A stretch of 24,000 bases of DNA, taken from assembly GCF_047345745.1 (NCBI RefSeq), contig NZ_JBLFES010000001.1, forward strand, positions 1,595,945 to 1,619,944. Direction: 5' to 3'. The stretch is from Maribacter sp. 2210JD10-5 (GTDB taxonomy: Bacteria; Bacteroidota; Bacteroidia; Flavobacteriales; Flavobacteriaceae). The notes below the pieces were generated by a model, which saw only the letters and a program-made list of their open reading frames with translations, did no database searches and was not told the origin of the DNA. Made by a program: the position numbers and the translations under genes. Shown piece after piece: positions 33 to 16,539 of this stretch (position 1 is its first letter; every line of letters begins with the position of its first letter).

Positions 33-791
33 CTATTTTTTGGTTATTCCAATGCTATTGAACGTGTTGGAGTTCAGCAAATCCATTGAATTTCCAAGGG
101 TATCCAATACTTCTAGCCGTGCGTTATCGGAATCGTCAACGTGAAGTTTAATACGCATCCGGCTTTTGGAATCATAAAGGAAGAGGCCTATATCACCGTT
201 TTCCTCCCTGCCTAAAAACATTCGGTATTTGTTGATGTTTTCATCAATATATTTTTTGAATTTTAGGTATTCTTCCCTTTTACGTTTCTCGTCAAAAGAC
301 TGTGTTTTTTCAGCGAAATCCGCATATAGTTTTTCAACACGTACGGAGTCTGCCCGTTCCCTGAAAAACATACCGTACCATCGCTTCCAGCTATCGCCGT
401 CTTTGTATTCGTCTTTCATGATGGCCATAATCTGGTCATTCTTTTGCTGGTCAAATGTTATTCCCGCGATATTTTCAGTATCGGTACCATCATAATAGAT
501 GCCACCAACCTCGTCTCCAACCCTGTTGAAAAAAATGATGCCCGGCAGATCTCTTTCGGAATCGGGATCGTTCACAACTCCGTTGGTTGTGGCCAAAGCC
601 TGTCGCTCGGGATTGCTTAAAACCATGTAATGATTCTTGTCGGAACCTACCACATTCAATCGTTCCACGGTAAGTTCTGGAATGAAATTGATTTTCGGGG
701 TTATTACATCCCTATACACGATATACAACAGCATTAGGAACAGTACCGTCGAGTTCAAGATTTTCAAATATGTTATTTTCGTTTTTTTCAT
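33..791 (-). CDS. hypothetical membrane-anchored protein, no recognisable domain
   Basis: 252-aa ORF. The N-terminus MKKTKITYLKILNSTVLFLMLLYIVY is a basic stretch followed by one hydrophobic helix. The rest is charged and soluble-looking, with no motif I can assign. Copy 1 of the GAYTTTTTGACAAR element lies upstream at 919-932. Confidence 0.55.
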   Translation of the reverse strand: MKKTKITYLKILNSTVLFLMLLYIVYRDVITPKINFIPELTVERLNVVGSDKNHYMVLSNPERQALATTNGVVNDPDSERDLPGIIFFNRVGDEVGGIYYDGTDTENIAGITFDQQKNDQIMAIMKDEYKDGDSWKRWYGMFFRERADSVRVEKLYADFAEKTQSFDEKRKREEYLKFKKYIDENINKYRMFLGREENGDIGLFLYDSKSRMRIKLHVDDSDNARLEVLDTLGNSMDLLNSNTFNSIGITKK

Positions 792-918
792 TTCAAACTG
801 AGTATTTCATAAAGCTGTTACTGGCTTTCATAGGATACAATCAAATGATATCGATGTTTTCCCTTACTAAAGTCATGTTGCCAAGTGGCTTAAATCTATT
901 ACGGTAGCAAACAATTCG

Positions 919-932
919 TTTGTCAAAAAATC
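919..932 (-). promoter_or_regulatory. copy 1 of 14-bp upstream element (GATTTTTTGACAAA read on minus strand)
   Basis: Intergenic, 128 nt upstream of the ORF 33-791 start. Preceded by an A-tract (aaaaaatt). Followed 25 nt after the G of TTTTTG by TAGATTTA (891-898), which resembles the Bacteroidetes -7 box TAnnTTTG. Confidence 0.55.
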
Positions 933-1076
933 AATTTTTTCCCGACAGTACAAGTTCAACCTGTTTTATATGTTTATAAATCGATTCAGGTGAGTGTTCG
1001 GAAATCTCGGGCTAAGAAAATTTATATGTTGTGCTATTCTTCTTTTGGGTTTTTCTAACACGGCCATAATAAAAAA

Positions 1077-1090
1077 GACTTTTTGACAAA
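1077..1090 (+). promoter_or_regulatory. copy 2 of 14-bp upstream element (GACTTTTTGACAAA)
   Basis: Intergenic, 54 nt upstream of ATG 1144. Preceded by AAAAAA. Followed 26 nt after the G of TTTTTG by TATCTTGT (1112-1119). Divergent with respect to copy 1. Confidence 0.6.
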
Positions 1091-1143
1091 CAGTATTTAC
1101 GTATCTGAACCTATCTTGTCAGTTATGTGAATATTTTCCGAGG

Positions 1144-2331
1144 ATGAAAACTATAATTTCAATTATACTAAGCTTGACTTTGGTTTCTTGCAAAACCGAA
1201 TCAAAAAAGACAAATCATCAAGAGGGGCAAATTTTGAAACCTAATTCTTTAAGAATTGCCCAAATAGATAGCCTCATAAGAGGTTTGATAACCGAGAAAA
1301 AATCGGCAGGGGCCATTTTAGGAATTCAAGTTACCGATAATCACCCTGTAATAAAGACCTACGGTTTTGCAGATATTTCAATGAAGAAGGAAGTCGATAA
1401 GAACCATCAATTCAGGATAGCATCCATTACCAAGCCATTCACCGCTGTGGCGATTCTTAAGTTGGTTGAAGACAAAAAACTGGCTTTGGAAGATACCCTC
1501 GATAAATTCTTTCCGAACTTTCCTAACGGCAATGAAATAACTGTTTATCAGTTATTATCGCACACTTCTGGAATTCCCAACTGGTACGAGGCAAAAATGC
1601 CGAAAGAGACCCCTCCTGATTTTCCAATGTGTTTTTCCCGACAAAAGTTTATATCCAAAATGTCGCCGTCATCCTTGTTTCCACCGGGTACATTGTACAG
1701 TTATTCGAATACTGGCTATGTGCTTTTAGGAGAAATCATCGAGATGGTCTCGGGAATAACCTATGAAAATTATTTACAAGAAGCCATTTTTGAACCTTCA
1801 GGTATGACCGATACCGAAATGGAACGAGAGGGGAATGAATCCGAACAGTGGGTGATGGGATATGGTTACGATAGCACATTAGAGAATCCGTTCATACAAC
1901 CCGAACAATATGCGATGCCGTTCTCTGCCGGTGGCCTTCGGTCAACGGCAATCGATTTATTGCGATTTATAGAAGCATTGAACGATGATAAGATAATAAC
2001 AAAGGGACTAAGAAATAGCGCCATGTCTTATGCTAAGGTGAAAGATGGCAATGATGTGGACGAGGATAGATTTTATTTCCCCGAAGACTTCAAACGACCG
2101 GATCCGCCAAGTTGGATGCAGAAGTACGGATATGGATTGGGATTTGAAGTGATGCAAATCCATAACACCGAGGTCGTGTCGCATGGTGGTAGCATCGCAG
2201 GGTTCAGAACACTATTGATGTATATTCCCGAAAGTAGCGCCACGATGATACTTATGACCAATACTGGCAATCCGGGAGGATATTCGGATATTACAGTGGA
2301 TTTACAACGTCTTGTTACTGAATTGGAATAG
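1144..2331 (+). CDS. serine hydrolase of the class-C beta-lactamase/PBP family, lipoprotein
   Basis: 395 aa. Lipoprotein signal MKTIISIILSLTLVSC. Motifs: SxxK (ASITKPF), YxN (YSNTGY), and HGG in the KTG position (SHGGSIAGF). Confidence 0.85.
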   Translation: MKTIISIILSLTLVSCKTESKKTNHQEGQILKPNSLRIAQIDSLIRGLITEKKSAGAILGIQVTDNHPVIKTYGFADISMKKEVDKNHQFRIASITKPFTAVAILKLVEDKKLALEDTLDKFFPNFPNGNEITVYQLLSHTSGIPNWYEAKMPKETPPDFPMCFSRQKFISKMSPSSLFPPGTLYSYSNTGYVLLGEIIEMVSGITYENYLQEAIFEPSGMTDTEMEREGNESEQWVMGYGYDSTLENPFIQPEQYAMPFSAGGLRSTAIDLLRFIEALNDDKIITKGLRNSAMSYAKVKDGNDVDEDRFYFPEDFKRPDPPSWMQKYGYGLGFEVMQIHNTEVVSHGGSIAGFRTLLMYIPESSATMILMTNTGNPGGYSDITVDLQRLVTELE

Positions 2332-2342
2332 CACAAAAAACT

Positions 2343-3284
2343 TTGCCATATCCTCAGTCGAAAAACTTGAAGACTTCGGAACAAGCGGGGCTATCGAACC
2401 AATTAAAGGTAATCCATTCTTTGAGGAAAGCAATCCATATTAAAAACACCGCGCTAGGGAAAATCGAATATTCGATTCAGGGAAATGGGCAACCTATCCT
2501 ATTCTTGCATGGTGGCCATTCAAATTGTAAAGAGTTTTTAATTCACAAGGGATTTGATCCAAAGGACTTCTGTTTAATAACCCCTTCACGACCTGGTTAT
2601 GGAAATACGCCTCTTAAAGATAACTGTACTCCGAAAAGAGCCGCCGATTTGATGATAGCATTGCTCGATGAGTTACAATTGGATAGGGTAGTGGTCTATG
2701 CCGTTTCCGCTGCCGGTCCTACCGCTATCGCTTTGGCAGCAAACTATCCCGAAAGGGTTTTAAAGTTAGTTTTGGCTTCGGCCGTCACCAAAAAGTGGCT
2801 CAGTAAGAATGAACTGACCTACAAGATGGCCCAGTGGCTTTTTCACCCAAATTTACAAGGAATGACTTGGGGAATGATTCGGTTCTTTTCACGCTTGATG
2901 CCAAATACAATCGCAAAAAGCTTTTACCAACAGTTTACAAAGAACAAAGCCCACAAAATTTCAAAAGACGAGGTATCGGAATTATTGGCGACCCTAAGAC
3001 ACTATCGTTCCCAAAAAGGATTTCTATGTGATATCGACCACATCATAGAAAGTGTTGTTCTTTCGGAGATAAAAGCCCCCACCCTGATAATTCATAGCGA
3101 AAATGACAAAAGCGTTTCTTTCGATCATGCCCTTCATGCCCATAGGATGATTGGCAATGCCAGGCTTATTAAATTGAACAATGAATGGGGTCATTTGATT
3201 TGGATAGGGCAGGACTCGAGAAACAGCATTAAAGAAACGATTGATTTCATAAAAACAATAGCTCAAGACAGGTTCAATAAATAG
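2343..3284 (+). CDS. alpha/beta-fold hydrolase
   Basis: 313-aa ORF. Oxyanion HGG (ILFLHGGHSN). Nucleophile elbow AVSAAG, where Ser is kept but the flanking Gly residues are Ala. Acid in HSENDKSV and His in EWGHLIW. There is no in-frame ATG before the conserved core, so the start must be TTG (2343, 2367 or 2421). The 5' end is uncertain. It lies 11 nt after the upstream hydrolase stop, so co-transcription is likely. Confidence 0.8.
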   Translation: MPYPQSKNLKTSEQAGLSNQLKVIHSLRKAIHIKNTALGKIEYSIQGNGQPILFLHGGHSNCKEFLIHKGFDPKDFCLITPSRPGYGNTPLKDNCTPKRAADLMIALLDELQLDRVVVYAVSAAGPTAIALAANYPERVLKLVLASAVTKKWLSKNELTYKMAQWLFHPNLQGMTWGMIRFFSRLMPNTIAKSFYQQFTKNKAHKISKDEVSELLATLRHYRSQKGFLCDIDHIIESVVLSEIKAPTLIIHSENDKSVSFDHALHAHRMIGNARLIKLNNEWGHLIWIGQDSRNSIKETIDFIKTIAQDRFNK

Positions 3285-3315
3285 AAGGAGAGAAATAACT
3301 CGAAAGACAAAAATC

Positions 3316-4170
3316 CTATTCAAAAGTATAGTCTTGACTATTGAACTCACTTAAGGCGAAATATCCGTATGGATAATTTTCCGGATTTGTAGAGTTATTA
3401 CAGTTTCCTTTGACATTTACAGGAGGAATTACGAATGGGCCACCTTCGTCATCTTGGTCTTCAAGAATGTCAAGATAGTTATAAAACGCCTCGGAAATTC
3501 CGTAAAGAGTCACTTCAAATTGGTCGTCTTTAGAAAAATCATCTTCATCCTCTTCTTCGTAGAAATTTAAAATTTGATTACCATCTTGGAACTCATCACT
3601 AAAAACGAAGTTTTCAAAAATAATGGAAACTATCGCTCCCTCAGCTCTTCTGGTTCTACGGTAGTTTACCCTGTAGTAGTTTTCTACATTTTCCATATCT
3701 GTAAAAAAAACACTTATTTCGGGATTATCTTGGCTAAAGCCTTTGTCGGTACTCTGGTTCACCTCGTCGATTTCAGGTGCCGCTATTAATTGTTCAGAAG
3801 CCGTATAGGTTTCCCCGTCGTAGACCACAGTCAGGGTATATGACTCCCCGATTTCGGGCACAAAAGAGTCGGTGAAATAGTCTCCATCATTGGCCTCTTC
3901 AAAGGCAAATACATTTCCTTCAGAGTTTTCAACCCTAACGGTAGCACCGATAGCAGGGGTCAACCGACCCTCATAAAAGGGGGCCACTTTTTTTAACCTA
4001 ATCCGTTGTTCTTGACCGGACGTTCCTTTCTCCCATTTTATAAGACCTTCAATGACCAATCGCTCTTTGGAAGAATCTAGATCAAGCTCGACGGTTTCTT
4101 CACAAGAAGTAGCATGCGTAAGAATAAAGGATAGTAAAAGATATAAAAGTAATCGTGCTAAATTTGTCAT
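3316..4170 (-). CDS. DUF4249-family lipoprotein (partner of the upstream TonB-dependent receptor)
   Basis: 284 aa. Lipobox LTHATSC followed by the acidic stretch EETVELDLD. Its start is 2 nt after the receptor stop. This pairing with a CarboxypepD_reg-type receptor is typical for DUF4249, as recalled from family knowledge. Confidence 0.7.
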   Translation of the reverse strand: MTNLARLLLYLLLSFILTHATSCEETVELDLDSSKERLVIEGLIKWEKGTSGQEQRIRLKKVAPFYEGRLTPAIGATVRVENSEGNVFAFEEANDGDYFTDSFVPEIGESYTLTVVYDGETYTASEQLIAAPEIDEVNQSTDKGFSQDNPEISVFFTDMENVENYYRVNYRRTRRAEGAIVSIIFENFVFSDEFQDGNQILNFYEEEDEDDFSKDDQFEVTLYGISEAFYNYLDILEDQDDEGGPFVIPPVNVKGNCNNSTNPENYPYGYFALSEFNSQDYTFE

Positions 4171-4172
4171 GC

Positions 4173-6569
4173 TTAAAATTTGAAATTATAGGTTACGGTA
4201 GGCATTATTCCGAAAATCCATGTTTTAATGGCTTCGTTTCGGTATATGGGTTCTTCATCGAGCGTAATCTGGCTGTTTCTAAACGAAATACTGGCAGCAT
4301 TTTTTCTACCGTATAGGTTATAAAGCCCGAATACCCATTCGCCCTTCCATTTTCTGTTATCGTTACTTTTTGGGGTTAAAGTGGCAGATACATCTATCCT
4401 ATGGTATGTGGGTAATCTTTGTTCATTTCTTCCCGTAAAAACGGGAACGAAGTATCCGTCAAAATCGTAGTAGCCCGAGGCATAGTTGGTAGGCCTTCCA
4501 GTCTGGAATATGAAATTGGACCCAAAGCTCCATTTATCGTTTAACACGTAATTACCAGTCAAAGAAATATCATGGGTTCTGTCATATGCGGTGTTATACC
4601 AATCGCCGTTGTTAATGCCAATTTCTTCGTCAGTTCTTCCTCTTACCCGTTGTTCAGACTTGCTCAATGTATAGCTTAGCCACCCTGTAAGACGTCCTGT
4701 ATTTTTTTTGAGTAAGAGTTCAAGACCGTAGGCACGCGATTCGCCGGGCAATATTTCGGTCTCGATATTATTGTTGGCTATTAAATCAGCCCCATCGATA
4801 TAGTCTAAACGATTATCGACAGTTTTGTAATAGCCTTCGATTTCCATAGTAAATTTATCGTCTTTAAAGTTTTTGAAATACCCTACACCATATTGGTCGG
4901 ACCGTTGTGGTTCTATGAATTTTCCACTAGGGGCCCAAACATCCAAAGGGGTTGCTGCGCTTGTGTTGGATATAAGATGTATATACTGGTTCGTGCGCTG
5001 GTAGCTTGCTTTTACGGAAGAAGCGTTATCGAATACATAGGAAAGGGACAAGCGGGGTTCTAAATTGAAGAATGATTCAATGATTTCTCCGTCATCGAAT
5101 GCCTGTTCCCCATTAGGCTTCGCACTTCGGTAAATATCAAAGCGAGAATCATAGATGACCGCTCTTTCGTTGGCGTATGTGTTGAGCATTTGGCCACCCA
5201 ACCGGGCAAAAGATGATAGCCTAATCCCATATTGAATGGATAGGTTGGCCGCTAAATCCTGTTCCGCCCCGATATATAAGCTAGGTTCCAAAGCATATTT
5301 TTCATCCAGTTTTGCATCATTTATCCTTGAATTCTCCCCAGTAGACGTTACCTCTCCGGGATTGAAATTGAAATATCCGGCGCTTAGTCCAAAATTCAAC
5401 TTTAGATTATTATTCAGATAATAGCGAAAATCGTATTTCAGGTCAAAGTTGGTGATTCCCGAATCCAGTTCAAGGCCATTTGATGAAAAGGATAGACCAT
5501 AATCATAACTACTATAAATCAAGGATAAATTGGAGAACAATCGGGTTCCGAACAGATGATTCCATCGCAGATTAAAAGAGGTATTGCCATAACTATTTTT
5601 GAAATCCTCGGCGATGGTTAGGTTGTCCTTGCCAAAATATCCCGAGAGAAAAAGCTTGTTTTTACTATCCAGTTCATAGGAAAGCTTAGTGTTCAAATCG
5701 TAGAACGATGCCCTATTGGGCTCATCTGCCAACATTAAAAAGAGATTGGCATATGAGGTTCTACCGGCCACAAGAAAAGAACTCTTGTCTTTTTGCAATG
5801 GGCCTTCGACCATGAGTCTGCTTGAAATCAACCCGATACCCCCGTTCAGATGTAACTCTTTAGTGTTACCGTCCTTTTGGCGTACATCCAAGACCGACGA
5901 AATCCTACCCCCGAACCTTGCCGGAATACCCCCTTTGTACAACTTTATATCCTTGACCGCATCAGCGTTGAAGACTGAAAAGAAACCGAATAAATGTGAG
6001 GTGTTGTAAATAGTGGCTTCATCAAGAAGTACAAGGTTTTGATCGGCCGCACCGCCCCGAACATGAAACCCAGTAGAGCCTTCATTGGCATTATTGACTC
6101 CGGGCAATAAGGTTATGGTCTTCAGCAAATCGATTTCCCCAAAAACTACTGGAGCTTGCTTTATGGCTTTTGCGCTTAGCTTATTTACGCTCATTTGCGG
6201 AACCTTTATTTGGGATTTCGTATCATTGTCATCTGCCAAAACCACAACTTCGTCCAATTCCGTAGCTACCTCTTCCAGCTCTATATTTAGAGTAAGGTCT
6301 TCATTGAGTTCAACCTCTTTTTCATAGGTGTTGAATCCCATATAACTGAATAGCAATTTGTAGCTGCCGTGGGGTAAGGTGATGCTGTAGAAACCATATT
6401 CATTGGTAATGACTCCTCGGTTTTCGTTGTATACGGTGACGTTTACGCCAAAGAGTGTCTCCCCACTGGAACTATCGGTCAATTTTCCACTGATAGTACT
6501 TTCTTGGGCATAATTGTAGAAATTTCCAAGACACAGGAGAATAAGCATACCAAAAATCTGTCTTTTCAT
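4173..6569 (-). CDS. TonB-dependent receptor with N-terminal carboxypeptidase-D-regulatory-like domain
   Basis: 798 aa. Signal peptide ending NYAQE. CarboxypepD_reg-like segment (ISGKLTDSSSGETLFGVNVTV...GFYSITLPHGSYKLLFSYMGF). Then a plug-like region and a long beta-barrel ending in the aromatic C-terminus TYNFKF. Confidence 0.9.
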   Translation of the reverse strand: MKRQIFGMLILLCLGNFYNYAQESTISGKLTDSSSGETLFGVNVTVYNENRGVITNEYGFYSITLPHGSYKLLFSYMGFNTYEKEVELNEDLTLNIELEEVATELDEVVVLADDNDTKSQIKVPQMSVNKLSAKAIKQAPVVFGEIDLLKTITLLPGVNNANEGSTGFHVRGGAADQNLVLLDEATIYNTSHLFGFFSVFNADAVKDIKLYKGGIPARFGGRISSVLDVRQKDGNTKELHLNGGIGLISSRLMVEGPLQKDKSSFLVAGRTSYANLFLMLADEPNRASFYDLNTKLSYELDSKNKLFLSGYFGKDNLTIAEDFKNSYGNTSFNLRWNHLFGTRLFSNLSLIYSSYDYGLSFSSNGLELDSGITNFDLKYDFRYYLNNNLKLNFGLSAGYFNFNPGEVTSTGENSRINDAKLDEKYALEPSLYIGAEQDLAANLSIQYGIRLSSFARLGGQMLNTYANERAVIYDSRFDIYRSAKPNGEQAFDDGEIIESFFNLEPRLSLSYVFDNASSVKASYQRTNQYIHLISNTSAATPLDVWAPSGKFIEPQRSDQYGVGYFKNFKDDKFTMEIEGYYKTVDNRLDYIDGADLIANNNIETEILPGESRAYGLELLLKKNTGRLTGWLSYTLSKSEQRVRGRTDEEIGINNGDWYNTAYDRTHDISLTGNYVLNDKWSFGSNFIFQTGRPTNYASGYYDFDGYFVPVFTGRNEQRLPTYHRIDVSATLTPKSNDNRKWKGEWVFGLYNLYGRKNAASISFRNSQITLDEEPIYRNEAIKTWIFGIMPTVTYNFKF

Positions 6570-6623
6570 ATAGCATTTGCGTAATTATCGTAGTCGCTAG
6601 GACCTAAATCTTTAAAACAGCTG

Positions 6624-6631
6624 CAAAGCTA
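6624..6631 (-). promoter_or_regulatory. -7 promoter box TAGCTTTG (perfect TAnnTTTG) for the TonB receptor operon
   Basis: The minus strand reads TAGCTTTG, 55 nt upstream of the start at 6569 and 25 nt downstream of element copy 3. Confidence 0.5.
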
Positions 6632-6651
6632 TTTGACAGTAGGGTGGATGA

Positions 6652-6665
6652 CTTGTCAAAAAGTC
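6652..6665 (-). promoter_or_regulatory. copy 3 of 14-bp upstream element (GACTTTTTGACAAG read on minus strand)
   Basis: Intergenic, between the DinB stop (6690) and the receptor start (6569). Preceded by AAAAAA. The 19 nt aaaaaagactttttgacaa are identical to copy 2. Confidence 0.6.
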
Positions 6666-6689
6666 TTTTTTAGGTGGAAGTATATTATA

Positions 6690-7274
6690 CTATGTGAAGT
6701 CTAAATGTTGTGCTCCCTCGCCGGTCAAGTTTTTTTTCATGGTATTGGAAGCCTGCACGAGATGCCTTTCATTATGGTAAATAACTACCCTGAATATATC
6801 GCCCAATTTTAATTTAAGCCATTTGGCAATGCTTACAGGAACTCTGGCCTTGTTTAGATTAACACGTTTTGCAGATTCCAACAACTGCAATAATTTTTGT
6901 TGTTGAATAATGAATTCCTGTAGGATGTCCTTTGTCAATTTTTCCTCCGATGGATTTTTGCTTTTGAACGTTTTTATCTTTTTCATCTGCTCGCCTGGTA
7001 ACATGCTCTCGGCAAAACGATTTCCAAGAAATCCACTTTTGAAATTGGTTTCGGCTGAATGTTTACTCTTTAGAATGCTTTTTTCTATTTCAGGTAGGTA
7101 AAAAATACCATATAGGTTAAGATGCTCGATACATTGTAAGGCACTCCAGCTATCTCGATTTTTTCGCCAATTGAGTTCTTCGAGGGAATTTTTACGTAAT
7201 CTTGTCGCAAAATCCAAGTTTTTCTTGGTCAGTGCTATTAAATCGTTCAATAATTCCTCAGATTTCATGGTCAT
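6690..7274 (-). CDS. DinB-superfamily protein
   Basis: 194 aa with no signal peptide. His-containing segments typical of DinB four-helix-bundle metal sites (QCIEHLNLY and VIYHNERHLVQ). Starts 11 nt after the upstream hydrolase stop. Confidence 0.7.
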   Translation of the reverse strand: MTMKSEELLNDLIALTKKNLDFATRLRKNSLEELNWRKNRDSWSALQCIEHLNLYGIFYLPEIEKSILKSKHSAETNFKSGFLGNRFAESMLPGEQMKKIKTFKSKNPSEEKLTKDILQEFIIQQQKLLQLLESAKRVNLNKARVPVSIAKWLKLKLGDIFRVVIYHNERHLVQASNTMKKNLTGEGAQHLDFT

Positions 7275-7285
7275 GTTCTTTGTAT

Positions 7286-8359
7286 TTACAGGTTATCAAG
7301 AATTTCAGGTATGATTTCTTGAAAAAAGACATTGTTGTAGTGCTTCCCGCTGCAATTAGTAAAAACATTTATCGACGTTTTTTTCTTGGGATCATAAAAC
7401 ATAAACGACTGATATTTTAATGTGCTTCCGGCGTGGCCGATATATTCTTTTCCGCGGTAATTTAATTTCATGATGCCGAATCCATAAGAATTGATGCTTC
7501 CATCCCCTATGGGAATTGACATCGGATTCATGGGAATCCAGCTTCTCATTTTTGATATTGTTTCATCTTTTAAGATGTTCTTTTTAACAAAGAACCCTTG
7601 AAGGAATGCGTTGATTTCTTTCGGAGTACCAAATGCACCACCATCGTAGCCATAATTTTCTCGCCAACCGGAGACGTTGGAACTTGCTTTATCATCAGTT
7701 GCATAAAAGGCTTGTAACCCTAGATTCGCATTGCCCAAGTTGAGGTTTGATAGACCGTGGTTTTTAAAAAAATCATTGAAAGCCATAGTATATGGTTTGG
7801 AAAGTACTTTTTCCACGACCCCCTGCAAAATCAGATAGTTCGAATTGCTGTACATGTAACGCCCCCTATTTCTAAGAACTTTTTTTATATAACTGAATTT
7901 TTTGTTAAAATCCTTGGGCCCACCTCCATTGACCACAGCTTCTCTCCAATCCGAATGCGCTGTGTAGTCCGAGAGTCCACTAGTGTGGTTGAGCAAGTTA
8001 CCTATCGTTATACTATTTCCATCATCGATCTCGACCAGTTCTTCAACATAATCGACTGCCATATCTTCCAGATTAAGTTGCCCTTTTTCTATCAATTTGA
8101 AGACTAGAGCTGCCGAAAGAAATTTTGTTGTACTACCTATTCCGTATATAGTTTGTTTTTCCGTATCCGGATGGTGATAGTCCACTTTCAAAACATCATC
8201 TTCAGTCTCAACATAAACAGCCAGCGATGGAATGTTGCCTCTTTTGGCGATTCTGATAATTTTCTTTTCCAAATTAGATAATTGAATGGGTGCCTCTTCT
8301 GCACCCTTTTCGCAAGACGAAAGAAGTATAAGGTTGGCTAAAAGGATGATTAAATGCAT
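7286..8359 (-). CDS. serine hydrolase of the class-C beta-lactamase/PBP family, lipoprotein
   Basis: The ORF extends to 8443. The internal ATG at 8359 gives a clean lipoprotein signal, MHLIILLANLILLSSC. Motifs: SxxK (GSTTKFL), YxN (YSNSNY), HAG (GHAGS). Second member of this family in the window. Confidence 0.85.
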   Translation of the reverse strand: MHLIILLANLILLSSCEKGAEEAPIQLSNLEKKIIRIAKRGNIPSLAVYVETEDDVLKVDYHHPDTEKQTIYGIGSTTKFLSAALVFKLIEKGQLNLEDMAVDYVEELVEIDDGNSITIGNLLNHTSGLSDYTAHSDWREAVVNGGGPKDFNKKFSYIKKVLRNRGRYMYSNSNYLILQGVVEKVLSKPYTMAFNDFFKNHGLSNLNLGNANLGLQAFYATDDKASSNVSGWRENYGYDGGAFGTPKEINAFLQGFFVKKNILKDETISKMRSWIPMNPMSIPIGDGSINSYGFGIMKLNYRGKEYIGHAGSTLKYQSFMFYDPKKKTSINVFTNCSGKHYNNVFFQEIIPEILDNL

Positions 8360-8452
8360 TTTTGAAACTTTTACTTTCTGAAATAATATCTCGTTTAAAG
8401 ATGATATATGTGTTTGTTGATAAAATTGAACCCTCATTATCATGATTTAAAG

Positions 8453-9802
8453 CTATCCAAGGGAATAACCATAATAAAATTCAAGAATCTTCAACCTAAG
8501 AATATACTCATATTTGGTTTGGATAAGTAGTGCCTCTGCCTCATCGACCCTTACTTTCGATTGAATAAAATCGAAGGTATTCATCATTCCCGTATTAAAC
8601 CTCTGAATAGAATACTCATGGGCCAAACGACGTGCTTCCAAAGTTCTCAAAGCCGCTTCATAGCTTTTCGAAAAAGTGGAAACATCTACATAAGATCGGT
8701 AAATATCGGCCTCCAGTTCCATTAAGGTTCTTTTGTAAGCAACTTCTGCCAGCGCATGTTCTATTTTTGCCCTTTTGATATTGTTATTAATTGTGAAGCG
8801 GTTGAAAATAGGGAAGTCCAAATCGGCACGTATCTGTATACCATCGTTTAAGTACAGTTGGTCAAAAAAATCAAACCTCAAGCCCGTTCTGATATCAAAA
8901 AACAAGTCTGAATAGCGGGTGTCATACTCGAACACCCCTGTCAAGGTTGGATAACGTGCTCCCCTTGCTATATCGAGATTTTTATCGGCCAGTTCAACAC
9001 CAAGCTGAGAGAATTTCACATCATTTCTGTGAATGGTGGCTTTGTGAAAAATATCGTTTGCCGAATTGGACATGATGTTATTGGAGGGTATCTCTTGAAG
9101 ATTATTCTTAATTTCAAAATCCTCAGGGTTCTCGACTCTTAAAAGTTGGGCAAGGTTCAATTTTGAAATTGACACCATATTTTCTCCTTCAATTATTTGC
9201 TGCCCTTGATCTGCCAAAGTAGCTTCTATCTCTAATAAATCCCCTTTGGGAACTACCCCTGCTAAAACCAGTTCTTCTGTTATTTCAACTTCTTGTTCAG
9301 TAGCAGCGTATTGCGCCTTTAGTGCCCTTAATGATTCTTTATTGGATAGTACCTGAACAAAGGCATTTGCAACATTGAGACGAATGTCATCCTTTAGATC
9401 TTCTAACCGATACTGTTCGGAAACTTTGTTAAGCCGAGCCCTAGCGATAGCATTGTAGTTTCTAAGGCCATCGAACAGGGTAATCGAAGAAGTAAGATTT
9501 CCGGAACCGGTCAAAAGTGGCTCGGTAACCACATTATTGGTTATTGGATCAAAACTCAGTCCCCTTCTCTTGGTTACGTCTATAGTAGTTTCAAGGCTTG
9601 GAAAAAGTGCGCCGATGGCATTGGACTTTTCAATATCGACTTCCGAAACATCCAACTCAAGTTGTTTAATGGAAAGGTTGTTTTCCAAAGCGAATATGAT
9701 ACAGTCGTTCAAACTCCATTTTTGGGTTTGACTGAACACAGAGGAGTATGCAAGGATAAAAATTGCAATGGTTAATTTTAACTTAGTGCTACAAAATGGC
9801 AT
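8453..9802 (-). CDS. TolC-family outer-membrane efflux protein
   Basis: 449 aa. Signal peptide ending SVFSQ. N-terminal WSLNDCIIFALENNLSIKQ and two repeated coiled-coil/beta halves, typical of Bacteroidetes TolC-like proteins. No adaptor or pump gene is adjacent. Confidence 0.85.
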   Translation of the reverse strand: MPFCSTKLKLTIAIFILAYSSVFSQTQKWSLNDCIIFALENNLSIKQLELDVSEVDIEKSNAIGALFPSLETTIDVTKRRGLSFDPITNNVVTEPLLTGSGNLTSSITLFDGLRNYNAIARARLNKVSEQYRLEDLKDDIRLNVANAFVQVLSNKESLRALKAQYAATEQEVEITEELVLAGVVPKGDLLEIEATLADQGQQIIEGENMVSISKLNLAQLLRVENPEDFEIKNNLQEIPSNNIMSNSANDIFHKATIHRNDVKFSQLGVELADKNLDIARGARYPTLTGVFEYDTRYSDLFFDIRTGLRFDFFDQLYLNDGIQIRADLDFPIFNRFTINNNIKRAKIEHALAEVAYKRTLMELEADIYRSYVDVSTFSKSYEAALRTLEARRLAHEYSIQRFNTGMMNTFDFIQSKVRVDEAEALLIQTKYEYILRLKILEFYYGYSLG

Positions 9803-9901
9803 AATGTATTTTTAAATTCGACCATCCCGCGCCTGTAAATTTTTTAAGTAATAAGAACGGGAGCGCTTATGCCGAAAATAGAATACGCCAGTATAGAAGC
9901 A

Positions 9902-9915
9902 TTTGTCAAAAAGTC
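9902..9915 (-). promoter_or_regulatory. copy 4 of 14-bp upstream element (GACTTTTTGACAAA read on minus strand)
   Basis: Intergenic, 100 nt upstream of the TolC-like start. Followed 26 nt after the G of TTTTTG by TATTTTCG (9863-9870). Confidence 0.6.
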
Positions 9916-10032
9916 AATATTTACCGAAATGTATTCGGAAAACGTAAATTGAACCATCGCGGTATCAAGTAAATCTAGGGTAGATTAACGATATTGACCG
10001 ACTCGGAGTTACAGAGACGAGTTCGCAGAAGA

Positions 10033-10953
10033 TTAATTTAAATGTTGGAAATGTGAGGGAGGCCGCCCATAGGCTTTTTTAAAGACTTTGCTGAAAACCG
10101 AAAGATCACTGAAACCCAATGAATCGGATACTTCGCTGACCGAAAGGTTTCCATTCTGGACTAATTCTTTGGCTTTTGCAACTTTTATTCTGTTCATATA
10201 TTGATGCGGTGTTCTACCAAAAGCTTTTTTAAAGGAATCGAATAAATGAAATTTTGATAAAGAGGAAGTTTTTGATAATTCGTCGATGGATATGGCCTCA
10301 CCCAAATTGTCATGAATGTATTCATAGGCGACTAATAGCCTTTTCAATGTTTCCTCTTTTGTAGAAAGTTTTTTTGCCTCAATTTTATCGGTAATCTTAT
10401 ATCCAATTTTTTGTTCCCTATACAACGATTGTAACAATTCTATCGTCAATTCATCAGCACTCGTGAGTTCAAAATCTCTTTGGCCGGATAGATTATAAAT
10501 CTGCTGAAGTAATATACCAGTTGAATAGTATTGGGCATTCAAAGAATTTTCGAGAAAAAACGAATCTTCTTGAATTTCCCCAAAAGGATTATCAAGCAAC
10601 TTCAAAGCTTCTTGTTGTAGATAATAGTTGCACTCGCTGATCAGTTTATTTGTAATATCAAAGCTTAGAACATCTAAATATTCATGTTTATCGTTAATAT
10701 ACTCCAGTCCCTCATTGGGATTTAAAATAACAAAATGACCAGATTTGACTTTTATTTGATTTGGGTTCGAAACAAACACTCCGCTACCGTTTTTAAAATA
10801 GAGTACTATCAGGCCATTTCTATAAAATTTATGATGATCTAAATGAACTTCATATCGCATCAAAAAATTTTTGTGCGGATTGTACTCGGGAGGAATCCTA
10901 TACTCTCTTTTCTCGAAGTGGTTGTAAAATCTATTTTTATACCTTAAAGTCAT
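10033..10953 (-). CDS. AraC/XylS-family transcriptional regulator with uncharacterised N-terminal domain
   Basis: 306 aa. C-terminal double-HTH region (ISIDELSKTSSLSKFHLFDSFKKAFGRTPHQYMNRIKVAKAKELV...SEVSDSLGFSDLSVFSKVFKKAYG). I could not assign the roughly 190-aa N-terminal part to a known ligand domain by eye. Confidence 0.85.
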   Translation of the reverse strand: MTLRYKNRFYNHFEKREYRIPPEYNPHKNFLMRYEVHLDHHKFYRNGLIVLYFKNGSGVFVSNPNQIKVKSGHFVILNPNEGLEYINDKHEYLDVLSFDITNKLISECNYYLQQEALKLLDNPFGEIQEDSFFLENSLNAQYYSTGILLQQIYNLSGQRDFELTSADELTIELLQSLYREQKIGYKITDKIEAKKLSTKEETLKRLLVAYEYIHDNLGEAISIDELSKTSSLSKFHLFDSFKKAFGRTPHQYMNRIKVAKAKELVQNGNLSVSEVSDSLGFSDLSVFSKVFKKAYGRPPSHFQHLN

Positions 10954-11057
10954 TTGTCAATTTTAGTTTCAATCTTTCCTTTTAAAATAGCTTTAGTCCT
11001 ATCTCTGCAGCGAGTTAGTGCTGCGAACCATTATATTAAATATTGCGGATTTACATA

Positions 11058-11987
11058 TCAGTTCATATAATATGAAGGCGGGTGGCCATACACTTTTTTA
11101 AATACTTTGCTAAATACGCTCAAATCACTAAACCCAAGTGAATCGGACACCTCAGATATAGATAGCTTCCCTGTTTTTACAAGTTCTTTGGCTTTAGATA
11201 CCTTTAATCTATTGATATATTGATGGGGAGTTTTTCCAAAGGCCATTTTGAAGGAATTATAAAGGTGAAATTTGGATAGGGATGAAACGAAAGACAATTG
11301 TTCAATAGAAATATGGGTTCCTACATTGTCATGTATGTATTCGTATGCAAGAAGTAGCCTTCTGAACGTTTCCTTTTTTGTCACTGATTTTTTAGCCTGT
11401 ATTTCTTTCTCGATTTTATTCCCCAATTTTTGTTCTCTATAAATTGATTGCAATATCTCGATGGTCAGTTCATCAGGGCAAGTCAGTTTGAAATCATCTT
11501 GATTTGACAACCCATATATGAATTGAAGTAGCTGCCCAGAAGCGTAATGCTTTGCCTTTAAAGGGCTCTCAATAAAAAAAGTGTCGTGACTAGTTTCGCC
11601 TAAAGGATCGCTTAATATTTTTTCATTTTCTTCTTGCAAATAGAAATTGCATTGGCTTATCAAACTATTGGATATACCGAAACTCAATACATCTATGTAA
11701 TCGTTTCGTTCATTAATAAATTCCCACCCGTCATTGGGATTAAGTATCAAGAAATCTTCATCCCTGACCTTCAATCTTCTGTCTTTAAGCATAAGTTCAC
11801 CACTGCCCTGTTTAAAATAGCGTATGGTCAAACTATTTTGATGAAAATTAAAGTAAGGAATTCTCGCTTTGTATCTTAATAATAAATTTTCCTCACTTTT
11901 ATAATTAGTGGGGAAATCCTCAACTTTGGCTTTATAACTTTGGTTTTCAAAATGGTTGTAAAAAAGATTTTTATATATATGGGGCAT
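11058..11987 (-). CDS. AraC/XylS-family transcriptional regulator, tandem paralog of 10033-10953
   Basis: The ORF extends to 12044. Alignment with the paralog (MPHIYKNLFYNHFEN vs MTLRYKNRFYNHFEK) favours the ATG at 11987. It shares the identical stretch SEVSDSLGFSDLSVFSKVFKK and is collinear with the paralog over its whole length. Confidence 0.85.
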   Translation of the reverse strand: MPHIYKNLFYNHFENQSYKAKVEDFPTNYKSEENLLLRYKARIPYFNFHQNSLTIRYFKQGSGELMLKDRRLKVRDEDFLILNPNDGWEFINERNDYIDVLSFGISNSLISQCNFYLQEENEKILSDPLGETSHDTFFIESPLKAKHYASGQLLQFIYGLSNQDDFKLTCPDELTIEILQSIYREQKLGNKIEKEIQAKKSVTKKETFRRLLLAYEYIHDNVGTHISIEQLSFVSSLSKFHLYNSFKMAFGKTPHQYINRLKVSKAKELVKTGKLSISEVSDSLGFSDLSVFSKVFKKVYGHPPSYYMN

Positions 11988-12243
11988 TGGCTTTCTTTTT
12001 GTAACAAGTCTACCAACGTTAATAATAGTTACTATTTTTAACATTATTCTAACTTATAGCATCCTTGTATTAGCGATTTAGTTTTTAAACAGTTATTCAA
12101 GATTTTGATTTATGAGAAAATCACACCATTTAATACAAGCATATCATAAAGATTCAAGAATCTAAAACTGGTTGCGTAAAATTTGCTCCTTTAACTTTTA
12201 TTATCCCATTTGTAAAGCAATATGGAACAAACAGGTCAGATAC

Positions 12244-13497
12244 CTAGACAACTACTAGATTGCCTTTCTTGGGCTTACATATTTTATCTTTGAGCACATT
12301 CATGTCCTCACTTATCTTCTTCTCAACTACACGGGCATAAATTTGAGTGGTAGCTAGTTTTGTGTGCCCTAGGAGTTTTGATACCGTTTCAATAGGCACC
12401 CCATTGCTTAACGTTACTGTAGTTGCAAAGGTATGTCTAGCCATGTGGAAAGTGAGGTTCTTTTTAATACCGCTGAGGTCGGCAATTTCCTTTAAATAGC
12501 TATTTAATCGTTGATTCGAAATTTTTGGAAGTAAAGTTTCGGTTAGTTGTGTTCTATGATGGTTTTCATATTTTCTGATTAAACATTCGGTCATCTGCAA
12601 TAGTGGAATTTTAAATGGGATTCCAGTTTTGTTTCTATTGGCCATAATCCACTTGTTTCCATCAATACCCTGCACGATATTTTCTTTCTTTAGATTGATT
12701 ACATCTCCATAGGATATCCCGGTATAGCAACTAAATATAAACAGGTCTTTTACCACGGCCAACCGCTCTATTTCCACAGTCAAATTTTCGATACTTTCCA
12801 GTTCGGTTTCCGTAAGAAATTCTCGCTCTTTACGTTCTATTTTAGGTTTAAATTTTACGAAAGGATCGCGTTCTATCCATTCCATGTGATAGGCCAAGGT
12901 AACCATTTTTCGAAACCGTTGAATGTGCTTCATAACGGCATTGTTTCCTATTCTTCCTTGATAATGGCTAGGTTGATAAGACCTTAGAAAGCTTTCAAAA
13001 CTTAATATGAAGGCATAATCCAGGTCTGGCAAGAATCTATCCTGTGATTTGAATTTTTTTTTGACAAACTCGAGAATGTATTTCTGGCTAGTTCGGTAAT
13101 GGCAGAGTGTTTTCGCACACAGTTTTTCTGCCATTGTTTCGTTGTGATAATCAAATATATCCTTTAGGGAATGAACTTTTTTGTCTTCGCCAAGAAATCT
13201 AGATTTGATAAGTTGTGGCGTTATAACTCTGGATTCTGCCTTTAGGTCACGATAACCTGTGACAATATCGGATTTCACTTCATCCAAGTAAGAATTTATT
13301 TCTCTAGCTTTTTGACCATTACCTTTTGCTCGTTGTCTTTTTGAATCCCATGAATCAACATTAACTTTTTGTTTGAGGCTGATATTGACCTTTTTTCCGT
13401 TCAGAGTGATTCGGACATAAATCTTGCAGTGATTATTCTTATCGGCCCTTTGTGTATAGACCCAAAAAAGGATTGAAAATGTGGTCGTACTTCGCAT
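12244..13497 (-). CDS. tyrosine-type site-specific integrase (Bacteroidetes IntDOT/NBU-like)
   Basis: The ORF extends to a TTG at 13521. The ATG at 13497 gives MRSTTTFSILFWVYTQR, the usual N-terminus of the arm-binding domain in this family. C-terminal catalytic motifs: YTGISYGD, HMARHTFAT (HxxR), and LGHTKLATTQIYARV (His and nucleophile Tyr). Confidence 0.9.
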   Translation of the reverse strand: MRSTTTFSILFWVYTQRADKNNHCKIYVRITLNGKKVNISLKQKVNVDSWDSKRQRAKGNGQKAREINSYLDEVKSDIVTGYRDLKAESRVITPQLIKSRFLGEDKKVHSLKDIFDYHNETMAEKLCAKTLCHYRTSQKYILEFVKKKFKSQDRFLPDLDYAFILSFESFLRSYQPSHYQGRIGNNAVMKHIQRFRKMVTLAYHMEWIERDPFVKFKPKIERKEREFLTETELESIENLTVEIERLAVVKDLFIFSCYTGISYGDVINLKKENIVQGIDGNKWIMANRNKTGIPFKIPLLQMTECLIRKYENHHRTQLTETLLPKISNQRLNSYLKEIADLSGIKKNLTFHMARHTFATTVTLSNGVPIETVSKLLGHTKLATTQIYARVVEKKISEDMNVLKDKICKPKKGNLVVV

Positions 13498-13588
13498 GTT
13501 TTTCGTCTTTAAATGAAACAATCAGTGAGACGAAAGTCAAATCAACAATGCAAATTTTCAGGTTGTTGGGAAGTCAATTTATAAAAGT

Positions 13589-13631
13589 GTTGACGATTTT
13601 GTTGACGATTTTAAAAAATGTTGACGATTTG
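13589..13631. repeat. three direct copies of GTTGACGATTT(T/G): 13589-13600, 13601-13612, 13620-13631
   Basis: Read directly: gtgttgacgattttgttgacgattttaaaaaatgttgacgatttgtg. Two copies are abutting and the third follows a 7-nt A-rich spacer. Located between the integrase start and the tRNA 3' end. Candidate arm-type recombinase sites or an operator. Confidence 0.8.
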
Positions 13632-13682
13632 TGAACTTTTAAAACCAAATCATATCAAATAAAATGATTCCCCTAAAAACAT

Positions 13683-13716
13683 AAAAGCTTGCTAATCATA
13701 AAATTAGCAAGCTTTT
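13683..13716 (-). terminator. perfect 14-bp inverted repeat, likely tRNA-Lys terminator (symmetric A4/T4 flanks)
   Basis: aaaagcttgctaat (13683-13696), cataaa loop, attagcaagctttt (13703-13716). Begins 25 nt downstream of the tRNA 3' end on the minus strand. Confidence 0.55.
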
Positions 13717-13740
13717 GATATTAGATGACATTTCTAATAG

Positions 13741-13813
13741 TGACCTGGCTGGGGCTCGAACCCAGGACCCTCTCCTTAAAAGGGAGATGCTCTACCAACT
13801 GAGCTACCAGGTC
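13741..13813 (-). tRNA. tRNA-Lys (anticodon UUU)
   Basis: The minus strand folds as a 73-nt cloverleaf: acceptor GACCTGG/CCAGGTC, D arm GCTC-AGTTGGTA-GAGC, anticodon arm TCTCC-CTTTTAA-GGAGA, variable loop GGGTC, T arm CTGGG-TTCGAGC-CCCAG, discriminator A. CCA is not encoded. Confidence 0.95.
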
Positions 13814-13849
13814 AAAATTTAAGTGCGTTCATTTCCCTGAATGCGGGTG

Positions 13850-13880
13850 CAAATATAAAGCGATTCATTTATTTTACAAG
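13850..13880 (-). promoter_or_regulatory. Bacteroidetes-type promoter for tRNA-Lys (-33 CTTG, 19-nt spacer, -7 TATATTTG)
   Basis: The minus strand reads cttg-N19-TATATTTG. The -7 box (13850-13857) ends 36 nt before the mature tRNA 5' end. Confidence 0.6.
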
Positions 13881-13927
13881 TCAATTTTAAGAGAATTTTC
13901 TTTTTTTTTGAAAACGCTATAAATTAG

Positions 13928-14470
13928 TTGAATTTTACACAAAACAAACGGGTGAAAATAATTTTGGTAGGGTATATGGGCAGTGGTAAAACTACCATTG
14001 GCAAGCTATTGGCTAAACAGCTGAATACTAATTTTTTAGATTTGGATGAATATATAGAATCATCGGAAAGGTCCACTATAAAAAAGATTTTCGAGGAAAA
14101 AGGGGAAATCTATTTCAGGAAACGAGAAATATTTTATTTGAATGAAATTTTAGCCTCTCAAGAGTCCGTAGTACTCTCCACAGGCGGGGGAACACCTTGC
14201 TTTGGAACAAACATGGATGCTATAATTGCCGCCACTCCAAACACCTTTTATCTAAAGGTTTCTCTTCCGGAATTGGTAAATAGACTTTCAAAAGGAAAAG
14301 AAGAACGGCCCTTGGTGAGTCGTTTTGAAAAAGAAGAAGAACTAATGGAATTTATCGGAAAGCATCTTTTTGAGCGAAGTTATTATTACAACAAGGCACC
14401 TAACGTAATCAGTACCGATGATAAAACGCCCGAGAAAATCGCCTTGGAAATCACCAATAAGTTAGTTTAG
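13928..14470 (+). CDS. aroK: shikimate kinase
   Basis: P-loop GYMGSGKTTIGKLLA, the STGGG shikimate-binding motif (VLSTGGGTPCF), and small size. No usable ATG is present. The start is TTG 13928 or, more like homologs (MKIILVGYMGSGKT), GTG 13952. Confidence 0.85.
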   Translation: MNFTQNKRVKIILVGYMGSGKTTIGKLLAKQLNTNFLDLDEYIESSERSTIKKIFEEKGEIYFRKREIFYLNEILASQESVVLSTGGGTPCFGTNMDAIIAATPNTFYLKVSLPELVNRLSKGKEERPLVSRFEKEEELMEFIGKHLFERSYYYNKAPNVISTDDKTPEKIALEITNKLV

Positions 14471-14959
14471 GAAAACGCGGTCATTTTTAGTTTCAAAAAT
14501 TACGTTTACATGTTCTTGCAGTGAGGTAGAAAGGCTTATTCCTTTATAATCCGCTTTAACGGGATATTTTTTATGATTTCTATTGACCAATACAGCGGTT
14601 TTCAACTGTTTCAAAGGCGTTTTTAAAAAATGGTGCACGCCGTAGATTAGGGTAGTCCCTGAATTAAGTACATCATCCACTAAAACAATAGATTTATTTT
14701 CATAGACCGTTTCTCCCAAAGAGGTCGTTACCTCTTGTTTTAAAGGGTTCTTTTTATCTATATTGACCTTACAGAGCGTAATCTTGGCATCTGTAATCTT
14801 ATTCAAGACGCGGATAATCTTTTTGGCAAAATGGATTCCTCCCCCTTCAATACCTGCAATGATAATTTCGGTTTCGTCCACATTGGCCTCATAAATTTGA
14901 TAGGCGATGCGTTCTACCTTATACTTTATTTGCCGATGGGAAAGTATGTTCTGTTCCAT
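14462..14959 (-). CDS. phosphoribosyltransferase-family protein (type I PRTase, PyrR/Hpt-like)
   Basis: 165 aa. PRPP-binding motif SIVLVDDVLNSGTTL. Its 3' end overlaps the aroK 3' end by 9 nt (convergent). Confidence 0.8.
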   Translation of the reverse strand: MEQNILSHRQIKYKVERIAYQIYEANVDETEIIIAGIEGGGIHFAKKIIRVLNKITDAKITLCKVNIDKKNPLKQEVTTSLGETVYENKSIVLVDDVLNSGTTLIYGVHHFLKTPLKQLKTAVLVNRNHKKYPVKADYKGISLSTSLQEHVNVIFETKNDRVFLN

Positions 14960-15015
14960 AGAATACGTTATTGGTCTAAAGATAAGTATGTTTCTGATAA
15001 GTAAATGTTGATAAT

Positions 15016-15414
15016 TTATTCTTTATTGTCGGTCTCTTCTTCATCTGTTGGAGTTTCCAAATAATCTTCAATTTCTCTACGGTCCTTTTTGGTAGGTCTC
15101 CCCGTTCCCTTTTTACGATAATAATCTTTGGAATATTGGAGTAGTTCATTGTGTTGAAACGCTTCTTTTGGTGTAGTATCTTTTCTGTAAATAGCGACCA
15201 ATTTTGCCCCCACACGGCTTTCAGGTGTCGCTAGCACGGTAAGTTTATAGTCGATTTGATTTTTCCTAAGAACAATTTCATCCATTGGAAAAACCTCACG
15301 ACCAGGTTTGCACACTTGACCGTTAATCTTTACTTGGCCTTTTTTACAGGCAGTGGTCGCTTTGTTTCGGGTTTTAAAGTACCGCGTACTCCATAAGTAT
15401 TTATCAATCCGCAT
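15016..15414 (-). CDS. S4-domain RNA-binding protein (Hsp15/HslR-like)
   Basis: The ORF extends to a GTG at 15444. The ATG at 15414 gives MRIDKYLWSTRYFKTRNKATTACKKGQVKING, the canonical S4 N-terminus. Basic/acidic C-terminal tail. Confidence 0.8.
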   Translation of the reverse strand: MRIDKYLWSTRYFKTRNKATTACKKGQVKINGQVCKPGREVFPMDEIVLRKNQIDYKLTVLATPESRVGAKLVAIYRKDTTPKEAFQHNELLQYSKDYYRKKGTGRPTKKDRREIEDYLETPTDEEETDNKE

Positions 15415-15483
15415 GAATTCAAAATCTTTGTTAAGGTCTTCCACAAAAATAGTGGAAAATTGTATCTTGCCGCCTTAAAAGCT

Positions 15484-16464: not shown

Positions 16465-16488
16465 GATAAAACATTATCTAATAAAAAA

Positions 16489-16522: not shown

Positions 16523-16539
16523 AATCTACTATTTTTTTA

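Follow-up and report, generated by a model that had tools for sequence, protein, structure and literature searches.

Which protein reads a short sequence that recurs in front of each gene unit of an accessory cluster in Maribacter sp. 2210JD10-5? The cluster lies in a 24,000-nt stretch of the genome (contig NZ_JBLFES010000001.1, positions 1,595,945 to 1,619,944 of the forward strand; hereafter, the window). The original prediction for this stretch described four copies of a 14-bp element, GAYTTTTTGACAAR, proposed that they define a local regulon, and named the products of two neighboring AraC-family genes, here AraC#1 and AraC#2, as the candidate binders. Comparison of the window with homologous loci leads us to regard the copies as operators of a local regulon that is very probably under the control of the adjacent AraC proteins, which would activate transcription from a site overlapping the -33 position of the promoter.

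The 14-mer has exactly four exact matches in the window, at 919–932 (minus strand), 1077–1090 (plus), 6652–6665 (minus), and 9902–9915 (minus), and none in 100 dinucleotide-preserving shuffles of the same DNA. Allowing two mismatches adds only weak matches, all of them within coding sequence. The four copies are intergenic and each faces its downstream gene, with distances to the start codon of 127, 53, 82, and 99 nt for boxes 1 to 4, respectively, and the four transcription units that they head cover all genes from 33 to 9802. The original reading of the copies thus holds for their coordinates, their A-rich 5' flanks, their common orientation 53–127 nt from a start codon, and the TAnnTT-type boxes downstream of them, and its gene assignments are upheld by Pfam and open reading frame (ORF) annotation. 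Its estimate of the length of the element was too short. In an alignment of the four copies conservation runs past the 14-mer into the A-run, giving a conserved element of about 23 nt with outer flanks that are not conserved.

To place the element in a wider context, 41 homologues of AraC#1 were aligned and loci encoding relatives were fetched, with one genome per species. Loci L001–L027 contain full-length members of the same AraC subfamily (39–68% identity) and come from Flagellimonas/Allomuricauda, Aquimarina, Saonia, Flavivirga, Arenibacter, Winogradskyella, Croceitalea, Ascidiimonas, Flammeovirgaceae, and Fulvivirga; loci L028–L080, which contain unrelated AraC proteins, were used as controls. 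A profile built from 27 sites with at most one mismatch, contributed by 17 of the 28 sources scanned, gives an asymmetric consensus of about 23 nt, AAAAAwwtGAyTTTTTGACAAAy. Conservation resumes in another block, from +34 to +41, that corresponds to the Bacteroidota -7 box, TAnnTTTG (PMC2483708, PMC7366714, and PMC7641319 for the -7 consensus; the first two for the -33/-7 consensus). At position 2 of the 14-mer the profile has T in 14 sites and C in 10. A GAC-N5-GAC direct repeat had been proposed as the internal structure of the element and is rejected here; across homologous sites the first triplet is GAY, with GAT commoner than GAC, and the repeat is not conserved.

Scored with the 23-nt position weight matrix (PWM; maximum 34.1), the window copies range from 22.7 to 33.8, and in each a -7-type box follows the G of TTTTTG at 25 or 26 nt, as originally noted. 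Box 1 (918..940, minus strand, core 919–932, score 33.8) heads ORF 33–791, and its -7-type box, TAGATTTA, lies at 891..898 on the same strand at a distance of 25 nt. Box 2 (1069..1091, plus strand, core 1077–1090, score 29.1) is divergent from box 1, 144 nt apart, and heads the genes at 1144–2331 and 2343–3284; the corresponding -7-type box, TATCTTGT, is found at 1112..1119 on the plus strand, 26 nt away. Box 3 (6651..6673, minus strand, core 6652–6665, score 22.7) heads the genes for a TonB-dependent receptor and a DUF4249 protein and is followed after 25 nt by a perfect -7 consensus, TAGCTTTG, at 6624..6631 (minus strand). Box 4 (9901..9923, minus strand, core 9902–9915, score 31.7) is located directly downstream of AraC#1 and heads the genes for an OEP channel, a serine hydrolase, and a DinB protein, with its -7-type box, TATTTTCG, at 9873..9880 (minus strand) after 26 nt.

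The distance between the box and the -7 element is equally strict outside the window. Among 46 strong sites, drawn from the loci above and five loci fetched afterwards, 35 have TAnnTT[TC]N beginning exactly 25 or 26 nt past the G of TTTTTG, and a perfect TAnnTTTG occurs at this distance in 23/46 as against a background of 0.12%. A TTG at the canonical -33 distance is absent from 34 of the 35 promoters that have TAnnTT[TC]N at 25–26 nt. In promoter studies of Bacteroides fragilis and Flavobacterium johnsoniae the usual spacer between TTTG and the -7 box is reportedly ~19 nt, and a sigma-A -33 element would be a TTTG 17–21 nt upstream of TAnnTTTG. The TTTG within the box, at 25–26 nt, is 6–7 nt too far upstream and therefore cannot be a -33 element. 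With the -7 box placed at approximately -12 to -5, the 23-nt element would extend from about -54 to about -33, and its GACAAA end would fall where the -33 TTTG is normally found. The conserved spacing and the missing -33 TTG support the earlier suggestion that the element is an activator or operator site and not a core -33 box. The layout is that of a class II site, at fixed phase just upstream of, and overlapping, an upstream promoter element that is itself poor or missing in these 34/35 promoters. A sigma-70-type promoter (TTGACA plus a -10 box) was also considered and rejected, its matches being no more numerous than in shuffles and its spacing a misfit.

The box is largely confined to loci of the AraC subfamily. 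Exact matches to the 14-mer number 21, in 14 of the 27 subfamily loci, and the 53 control loci have none. With a PWM score of 18 or more required, the 570 kb of subfamily loci yield 37 sites, spread over 16/27 loci, and the 929 kb from other AraC loci, of which 589 kb is AT-rich Bacteroidota DNA, yield none; the expectation from shuffles is 0.1. All but one of these strong sites (36/37) are intergenic and co-oriented with the downstream gene. Related loci have up to six boxes, while most of their intergenic DNA has none, and no box precedes the housekeeping genes of the window (13.9–24 kb). The box accompanies AraC homologues in Flagellimonas, Aquimarina, Saonia, Flavivirga, Winogradskyella, Croceitalea, and Arenibacter, weaker variants are found in Cytophagia, and clade-specific variants are located downstream of the AraC gene in L013, L015, L018, and L023.

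Within these loci the box is also placed close to the regulator gene. The median distance from a strong site to the nearest subfamily AraC gene is 934 nt; intergenic positions drawn at random from these loci give 3565 nt (Mann-Whitney p = 3e-7), and no strong site was found far from an AraC gene in the loci scanned. In 16 of 34 cases the AraC gene is followed, on its own strand and after less than 400 nt, by a strong site, as happens with box 4 in the window. The AraC gene is the only gene family common to the loci, which were retrieved through it. No box was found upstream of the two AraC genes of the window, so this locus does not use the box for autoregulation. In the Aquimarina clade (L013–L017 and L026, about 9890–9920) the AraC genes have in common another conserved element, tgTTAAAttnTGTTAAaa, immediately before their own -7 box, which suggests separate control of the regulator genes in that clade.

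A metagenomic locus, L083, has the same AraC-AraC-OEP-hydrolase arrangement as the window and six boxes, placed before OEP, beta-lactamase-family, alpha/beta-hydrolase, and platelet-activating factor (PAF)-acetylhydrolase-like units. The OEP proteins of the two loci are 60% identical and each is behind an equivalent box. In a footprinting comparison of the orthologous AraC-to-OEP spacers the only long identical block is the box itself, AwATTGACTTTTTGACAAAT, followed by a partly conserved -7 box (TAyTTT).

Residues of the predicted recognition helices vary together with the box. In the first helix-turn-helix (HTH) motif, LSK[FY]H is paired with GAyTTTTTGACAAA, and LSEYH, characteristic of the Aquimarina clade, is paired with TAAGTTTTTGACAAC; LSRFH together with VFGK in the second motif is paired with TTCAyTTTTTGACGAAA. 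The box variants of these clades are found at the same promoter position. The converse comparison used six loci that were fetched through homologues of ORF 33–791 and lack the AraC subfamily, from Sinomicrobium, Polaribacter, Abyssalbus, Flavobacterium, another Maribacter, and Flagellimonas abyssi. A genuine box precedes none of these six homologues as compared with 5/5 inside subfamily loci (Fisher p = 0.002), which indicates that the box tracks the regulator and not the target gene. Confinement, clustering, helix covariation, and absence without the regulator together support the neighboring AraC paralogues as candidate binders, and the four units of the window, with the conservation of the box across genera, support a local regulon defined by a shared cis-element.

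AraC#1 (10033..10953, minus strand) and AraC#2 (11058..12044, minus strand) are 59% identical and both match Pfam HTH_18 and HTH_AraC. Two further paralogues are encoded elsewhere in the Maribacter sp. 2210JD10-5 genome. The recognition-helix segments of the pair differ by two substitutions in the first HTH motif and one in the second, and the covarying positions (LSKFH and VFSK) are identical in both. The two proteins probably read the same box because their recognition helices are near-identical. The N-terminal part of the AraC proteins has no Pfam match; a structural model of AraC#1 from AlphaFold2 (AF2; predicted local distance difference test, pLDDT, 89) has a beta-barrel over residues 1–100, resembling a cupin domain, followed by a helical linker and two HTH motifs. 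The DNA-binding domain of the model superposes on MarA, AraC, and AdpA at 1.2–2.7 A, the N-terminal domain matches BgaR sensor-domain structures and the N-terminal domain of AraC, and the best full-length fold matches are ToxT, Rns, and CsvR. The double-HTH C-terminal domain and, according to the model, the cupin-like N-terminal domain place the proteins in the AraC/XylS family, and both fall below the cutoff of every named NCBIfam AraC family. AraC#1 is publicly annotated as 275 aa (P0001), and the conserved N-terminus of the family favors the 306-aa ORF. The 328-aa ORF of AraC#2 is probably 19 aa too long, with a likely start at about 11987 giving 309 aa (P0004, 309 aa).

We infer from the linkage and covariation that AraC#1, AraC#2, or both have a high probability of binding the box. 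It is also likely, given the position of the site, that they activate by contacting RNA polymerase from a location overlapping -33. A good -7 box without a -33 element is an activator-dependent promoter layout, in which an AraC protein on the box would recruit RNA polymerase from a class-II-type site overlapping the -35/-33 region. Binding may be monomer-like, as with MarA, or may involve a degenerate second half-site. The cupin-like domain of AraC#1 and AraC#2 may sense one or more small-molecule ligands, as expected from other members of the family, and the similarity to ToxT and Rns is a weak hint that a ligand could be lipid-like. The regulator and box would constitute a module that is conserved in marine Flavobacteriaceae and some Cytophagia and is wired to variable accessory genes.

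Several points weigh against this proposal. Retrieval of the homologous loci through the AraC gene makes the linkage partly built in, a bias that is lessened but not removed by the test of distances, the control loci, and the loci obtained with a target gene. Cupin-type AraC proteins are usually dimers on two half-sites, and only one box is visible per promoter. The 27-site profile contains no conserved second half-site ~21 nt upstream of the box, and divergent box pairs have variable gaps (22–144 nt) and are thus independent sites. Neither AraC gene of the window is preceded by a box. A site that overlaps the -33 position could serve a repressor too. Finally, three genuine-looking sites in metagenomes (L153, L157, and L164) have no AraC gene within their short DNA. 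These were obtained in a reverse scan with the 20-mer AAWWTTGAYTTTTTGACAAA, in which the matches listed were mostly unrelated low-GC tandem repeats and chance matches without a -7 box, the genuine-looking ones being these three and perhaps L136. Four low-GC contigs from one JGI sample, Ga0208946 (L116, L122, L124, and L133), contain the query within tandem repeats of ~18–20 nt, have neither a -7 box nor an AraC gene, and are unrelated to the regulon.

The sites without an AraC neighbor would be accommodated if the box were read by another factor, either an alternative or extracytoplasmic function (ECF) sigma factor for which TTGACA serves as a -35-like element or a transcription factor that is not linked to the cluster, with the AraC genes as co-resident members of the regulon. 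TTGACA is indeed present in the box, L019 and L153 have ECF sigma genes behind their boxes, and the AraC gene is itself part of a box-driven unit in L005, L020, L021, and L022. However, the 22–23 nt from TTGACA to the downstream box and the nature of that box, a sigma-A -7 element and not an ECF -10, do not fit a sigma factor of this kind, and an unrelated reader would not account for recognition-helix residues that change along with the box variants, for the loss of the box where the AraC subfamily is missing, or for AraC as the sole shared gene family, even allowing for the mode of retrieval. We consider a different reader quite improbable. Repression or dual regulation by the AraC proteins themselves, through blocking of the -33 region, is unlikely as well. 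It would agree with the overlap between box and core promoter, and a few AraC-family members do repress; the lack of a -33 element at normal spacing suggests instead that these promoters are weak unaided, and the box keeps strictly to the upstream side of the -7 box, in one orientation and at a constant phase. The sites of AraC/XylS activators (AraC I2, RhaS, XylS, and class II MarA promoters) usually abut the -35 region.

An A/T-rich sequence that contains TTTG and precedes -7 boxes might also be a generic promoter feature, such as an UP-like A-tract or a displaced -33 TTTG, and the integrase and tRNA genes that flank the cluster, like the occurrence of the bare 20-mer in unrelated low-GC metagenome repeats, could point to a small dispersed repeat or an island recombination site. 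We find these explanations very hard to sustain. The box is missing before the housekeeping genes of the window, from most intergenic DNA of the 27 related loci, and from the 589 kb of AT-rich control DNA, and the spacing of 25–26 nt misfits a -33 element. As for a mobile or recombining sequence (dispersed repeat, miniature inverted-repeat transposable element [MITE], or recombination site), conservation is restricted to ~23 nt with unconserved flanks, the window contains no larger repeat including the element and no terminal repeats, orientation and distance are strict, and the unrelated metagenome matches lack a -7 box. Activation from the box by the adjacent AraC proteins remains our preferred interpretation, and the box and regulator most likely constitute an AraC/XylS-type regulon with a class II site, judged by sequence comparison to be mechanistically ordinary. 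Full-text searches of the literature gave no description of either the box or the AraC subfamily.

The arrangement has counterparts among characterized regulators. As with AraC at I1-I2 of araBAD in Escherichia coli, RhaS, XylS at Pm, and MelR, a cupin-like sensor is combined with a double-HTH domain, the operator is an asymmetric, oriented sequence of ~20 bp overlapping the upstream promoter element at fixed phase, and the regulator gene adjoins its targets. In contrast to those activators, the promoter here is of the Bacteroidota -33/-7 type, one box is visible in place of paired direct-repeat half-sites, the box sequence is unrelated, and the targets do not form a catabolic pathway. The marbox of MarA, SoxS, and Rob is likewise a lone asymmetric box of ~20 bp that depends on its orientation and distance and heads several scattered units; its regulon, too, includes a TolC-family outer-membrane channel, and the DNA-binding domain of the AraC#1 model superposes on that of MarA (1bl0/1xs9). 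The marbox consensus is AYnGCACnnWnnRYYAAAY, and identity with it is rejected since the 23-nt consensus has no GCAC element; the resemblance is in layout only. Other differences are that MarA and SoxS have no sensor domain, that the present box is far better conserved than marboxes, and that no efflux pump partner is encoded here.

Over its full length, the AraC#1 model is matched best in structure by ToxT of Vibrio cholerae and Rns/CsvR of enterotoxigenic E. coli (ETEC). Their sites are T-tract-rich, of the "toxbox" type, upstream of genes for secreted and surface proteins, and PDB titles indicate that the N-terminal pocket of ToxT and Rns binds fatty acids. Sequence identity to these proteins is only 14–17% and TM-scores are low owing to domain orientation; toxboxes are degenerate and usually paired, they belong to another phylum, and a lipid ligand for AraC#1 would follow by analogy only. 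A parallel from marine flavobacteria is the alginate system of Zobellia, in which the GntR-family repressor AusR acts at palindromic operators, recognized by comparative genomics, in a polysaccharide utilization locus, as tested experimentally (PMC7641319). There too a conserved operator motif is placed beside a TAnnTTTG -7 box at several promoters of one marine flavobacterial cluster, whereas the present box is of AraC type, asymmetric, probably activating, and described from sequence comparison.

The genes behind the boxes do not constitute one pathway. In the window, unit 1 is a single gene for a membrane-anchored protein of family "c8" (33..791, minus strand) with no Pfam or NCBIfam match and no significant fold match; a terminator-like hairpin is located beside it at 18–31. 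Homologues with 49–67% identity are found across Flavobacteriia, Cytophagia, and Prolixibacteraceae and recur beside beta-lactamase-family genes in the loci examined (L206, L207, L211, and L083), and a Polaribacter homologue is situated within a type III polyketide synthase/FabA/ketosynthase cluster. Pfam assigns the other units as follows. Unit 2 (plus strand) consists of a lipoprotein beta-lactamase-family serine hydrolase (1144–2331) and, after an 11-nt gap, an alpha/beta hydrolase (2343–3284). Unit 3 (minus strand) comprises the TonB-dependent receptor (4173–6569) and a DUF4249 lipoprotein (3316–4170), a putative receptor lid; DUF4249 proteins have been proposed as lids for TonB-dependent transporters (bioRxiv 10.1101/2023.03.17.533168). 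Unit 4 (minus strand) contains an OEP/TolC-like channel (8453–9802), a lipoprotein beta-lactamase-family hydrolase (7286–8443), and DinB_2 (6690–7274). The beta-lactamase-family lipoprotein gene follows the OEP gene both here and in L083, and neither locus has a membrane-fusion or pump gene adjacent to the OEP gene (8453–9802 in the window, 11287–12621 in L083). An Rfam search of the window for RNA elements in the leaders matched tRNA only.

Over all loci the box-driven units contain 78 genes of heterogeneous content. Leucine-rich repeat (LRR) lipoproteins are represented 12 times, sometimes with five in tandem, followed by alpha/beta hydrolases (8), beta-lactamase-family serine hydrolases (5), N-terminal nucleophile (Ntn)-type AAT/C45 amidases (4), proteins with a type IX secretion system (T9SS) tail (4), AraC genes themselves in some loci (4), PAF-acetylhydrolase-like proteins (3), methyltransferases (3), and ECF sigma factors (3); the remainder are DUF5694, lipocalin-like, and uncharacterized proteins. 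Four to five paralogous LRR/DUF5018 lipoprotein genes are arranged in tandem behind a single box in L010 (8882–16808) and L012 (12906–20212), and a similar array in L009 (about 11000–17000) is behind a variant box. The ECF sigma genes of L019 (11617–12222) and L153 (1209–1760) hint at a regulatory cascade in some organisms. As judged from the predicted products, the common thread of these genes is that they encode secreted or envelope accessory proteins, chiefly hydrolases. The speculation that the cluster takes up, hydrolyzes, and exports a particular ester or amide finds no support as a general function of the regulon, as the targets differ widely between loci; for the window itself it could still hold.

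Few pairs of transcription factor and operator have been defined in marine Flavobacteriia, and the promoters of these bacteria depart from the E. coli model. A sharp 23-bp box of known phase with an identifiable candidate regulator is a test case for AraC-type activators working with Bacteroidota sigma-A polymerase, and the pair is a candidate inducible expression tool. The box also groups "hypothetical" accessory genes, among them those for LRR lipoproteins, serine hydrolases, DUF4249/TonB pairs, and the ORF 33–791 family, into units expected to answer one signal, which offers a route to their function.

The cluster looks like an island inserted at a tRNA gene, because it is flanked by a tyrosine integrase gene (12244..13521, minus strand; sub-threshold XerC, XerD, and integrase matches) and tRNA-Lys(UUU) (13740..13813, minus strand; tRNA/Rfam match), the probable integration site, after which housekeeping genes begin at 13928. 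GC content is 0.34–0.43 throughout the window with no clear compositional step. No att-type repeat of the tRNA end was found within the window, so the far end of the island is probably to the left of position 1. It is conceivable, if doubtful, that the AraC pair and its near-invariant box are a portable, island-borne module that wires acquired genes for secreted proteins into one ligand-controlled program. The genes concerned may include the beta-lactamase-like and alpha/beta hydrolases, Ntn-type amidases, LRR "eukaryote-like" lipoproteins, T9SS substrates, OEP, and TonB receptor. Such a program might serve defense or host interaction when a lipid-like or acyl signal is sensed, for example by degrading antibiotics or quorum signals, and co-evolved box variants may insulate paralogues within one genome.

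Three minor features of the window are recorded here. An 18-nt inverted match (17/18) connects 878–895, in the predicted leader of ORF 33–791, with 6812–6829 in the DinB coding region; by our estimate ~0.15 such matches are expected by chance and it is probably fortuitous. The spacer that separates the integrase start (13521) from tRNA-Lys contains three direct copies of GTTGACGATTT at 13589–13630, which the integrase could use as arm-type or regulatory sites. A perfect 15-bp hairpin with a T-run after it occupies 13683–13716, directly 3' of tRNA-Lys, and resembles a strong terminator that would separate the tRNA from the island.

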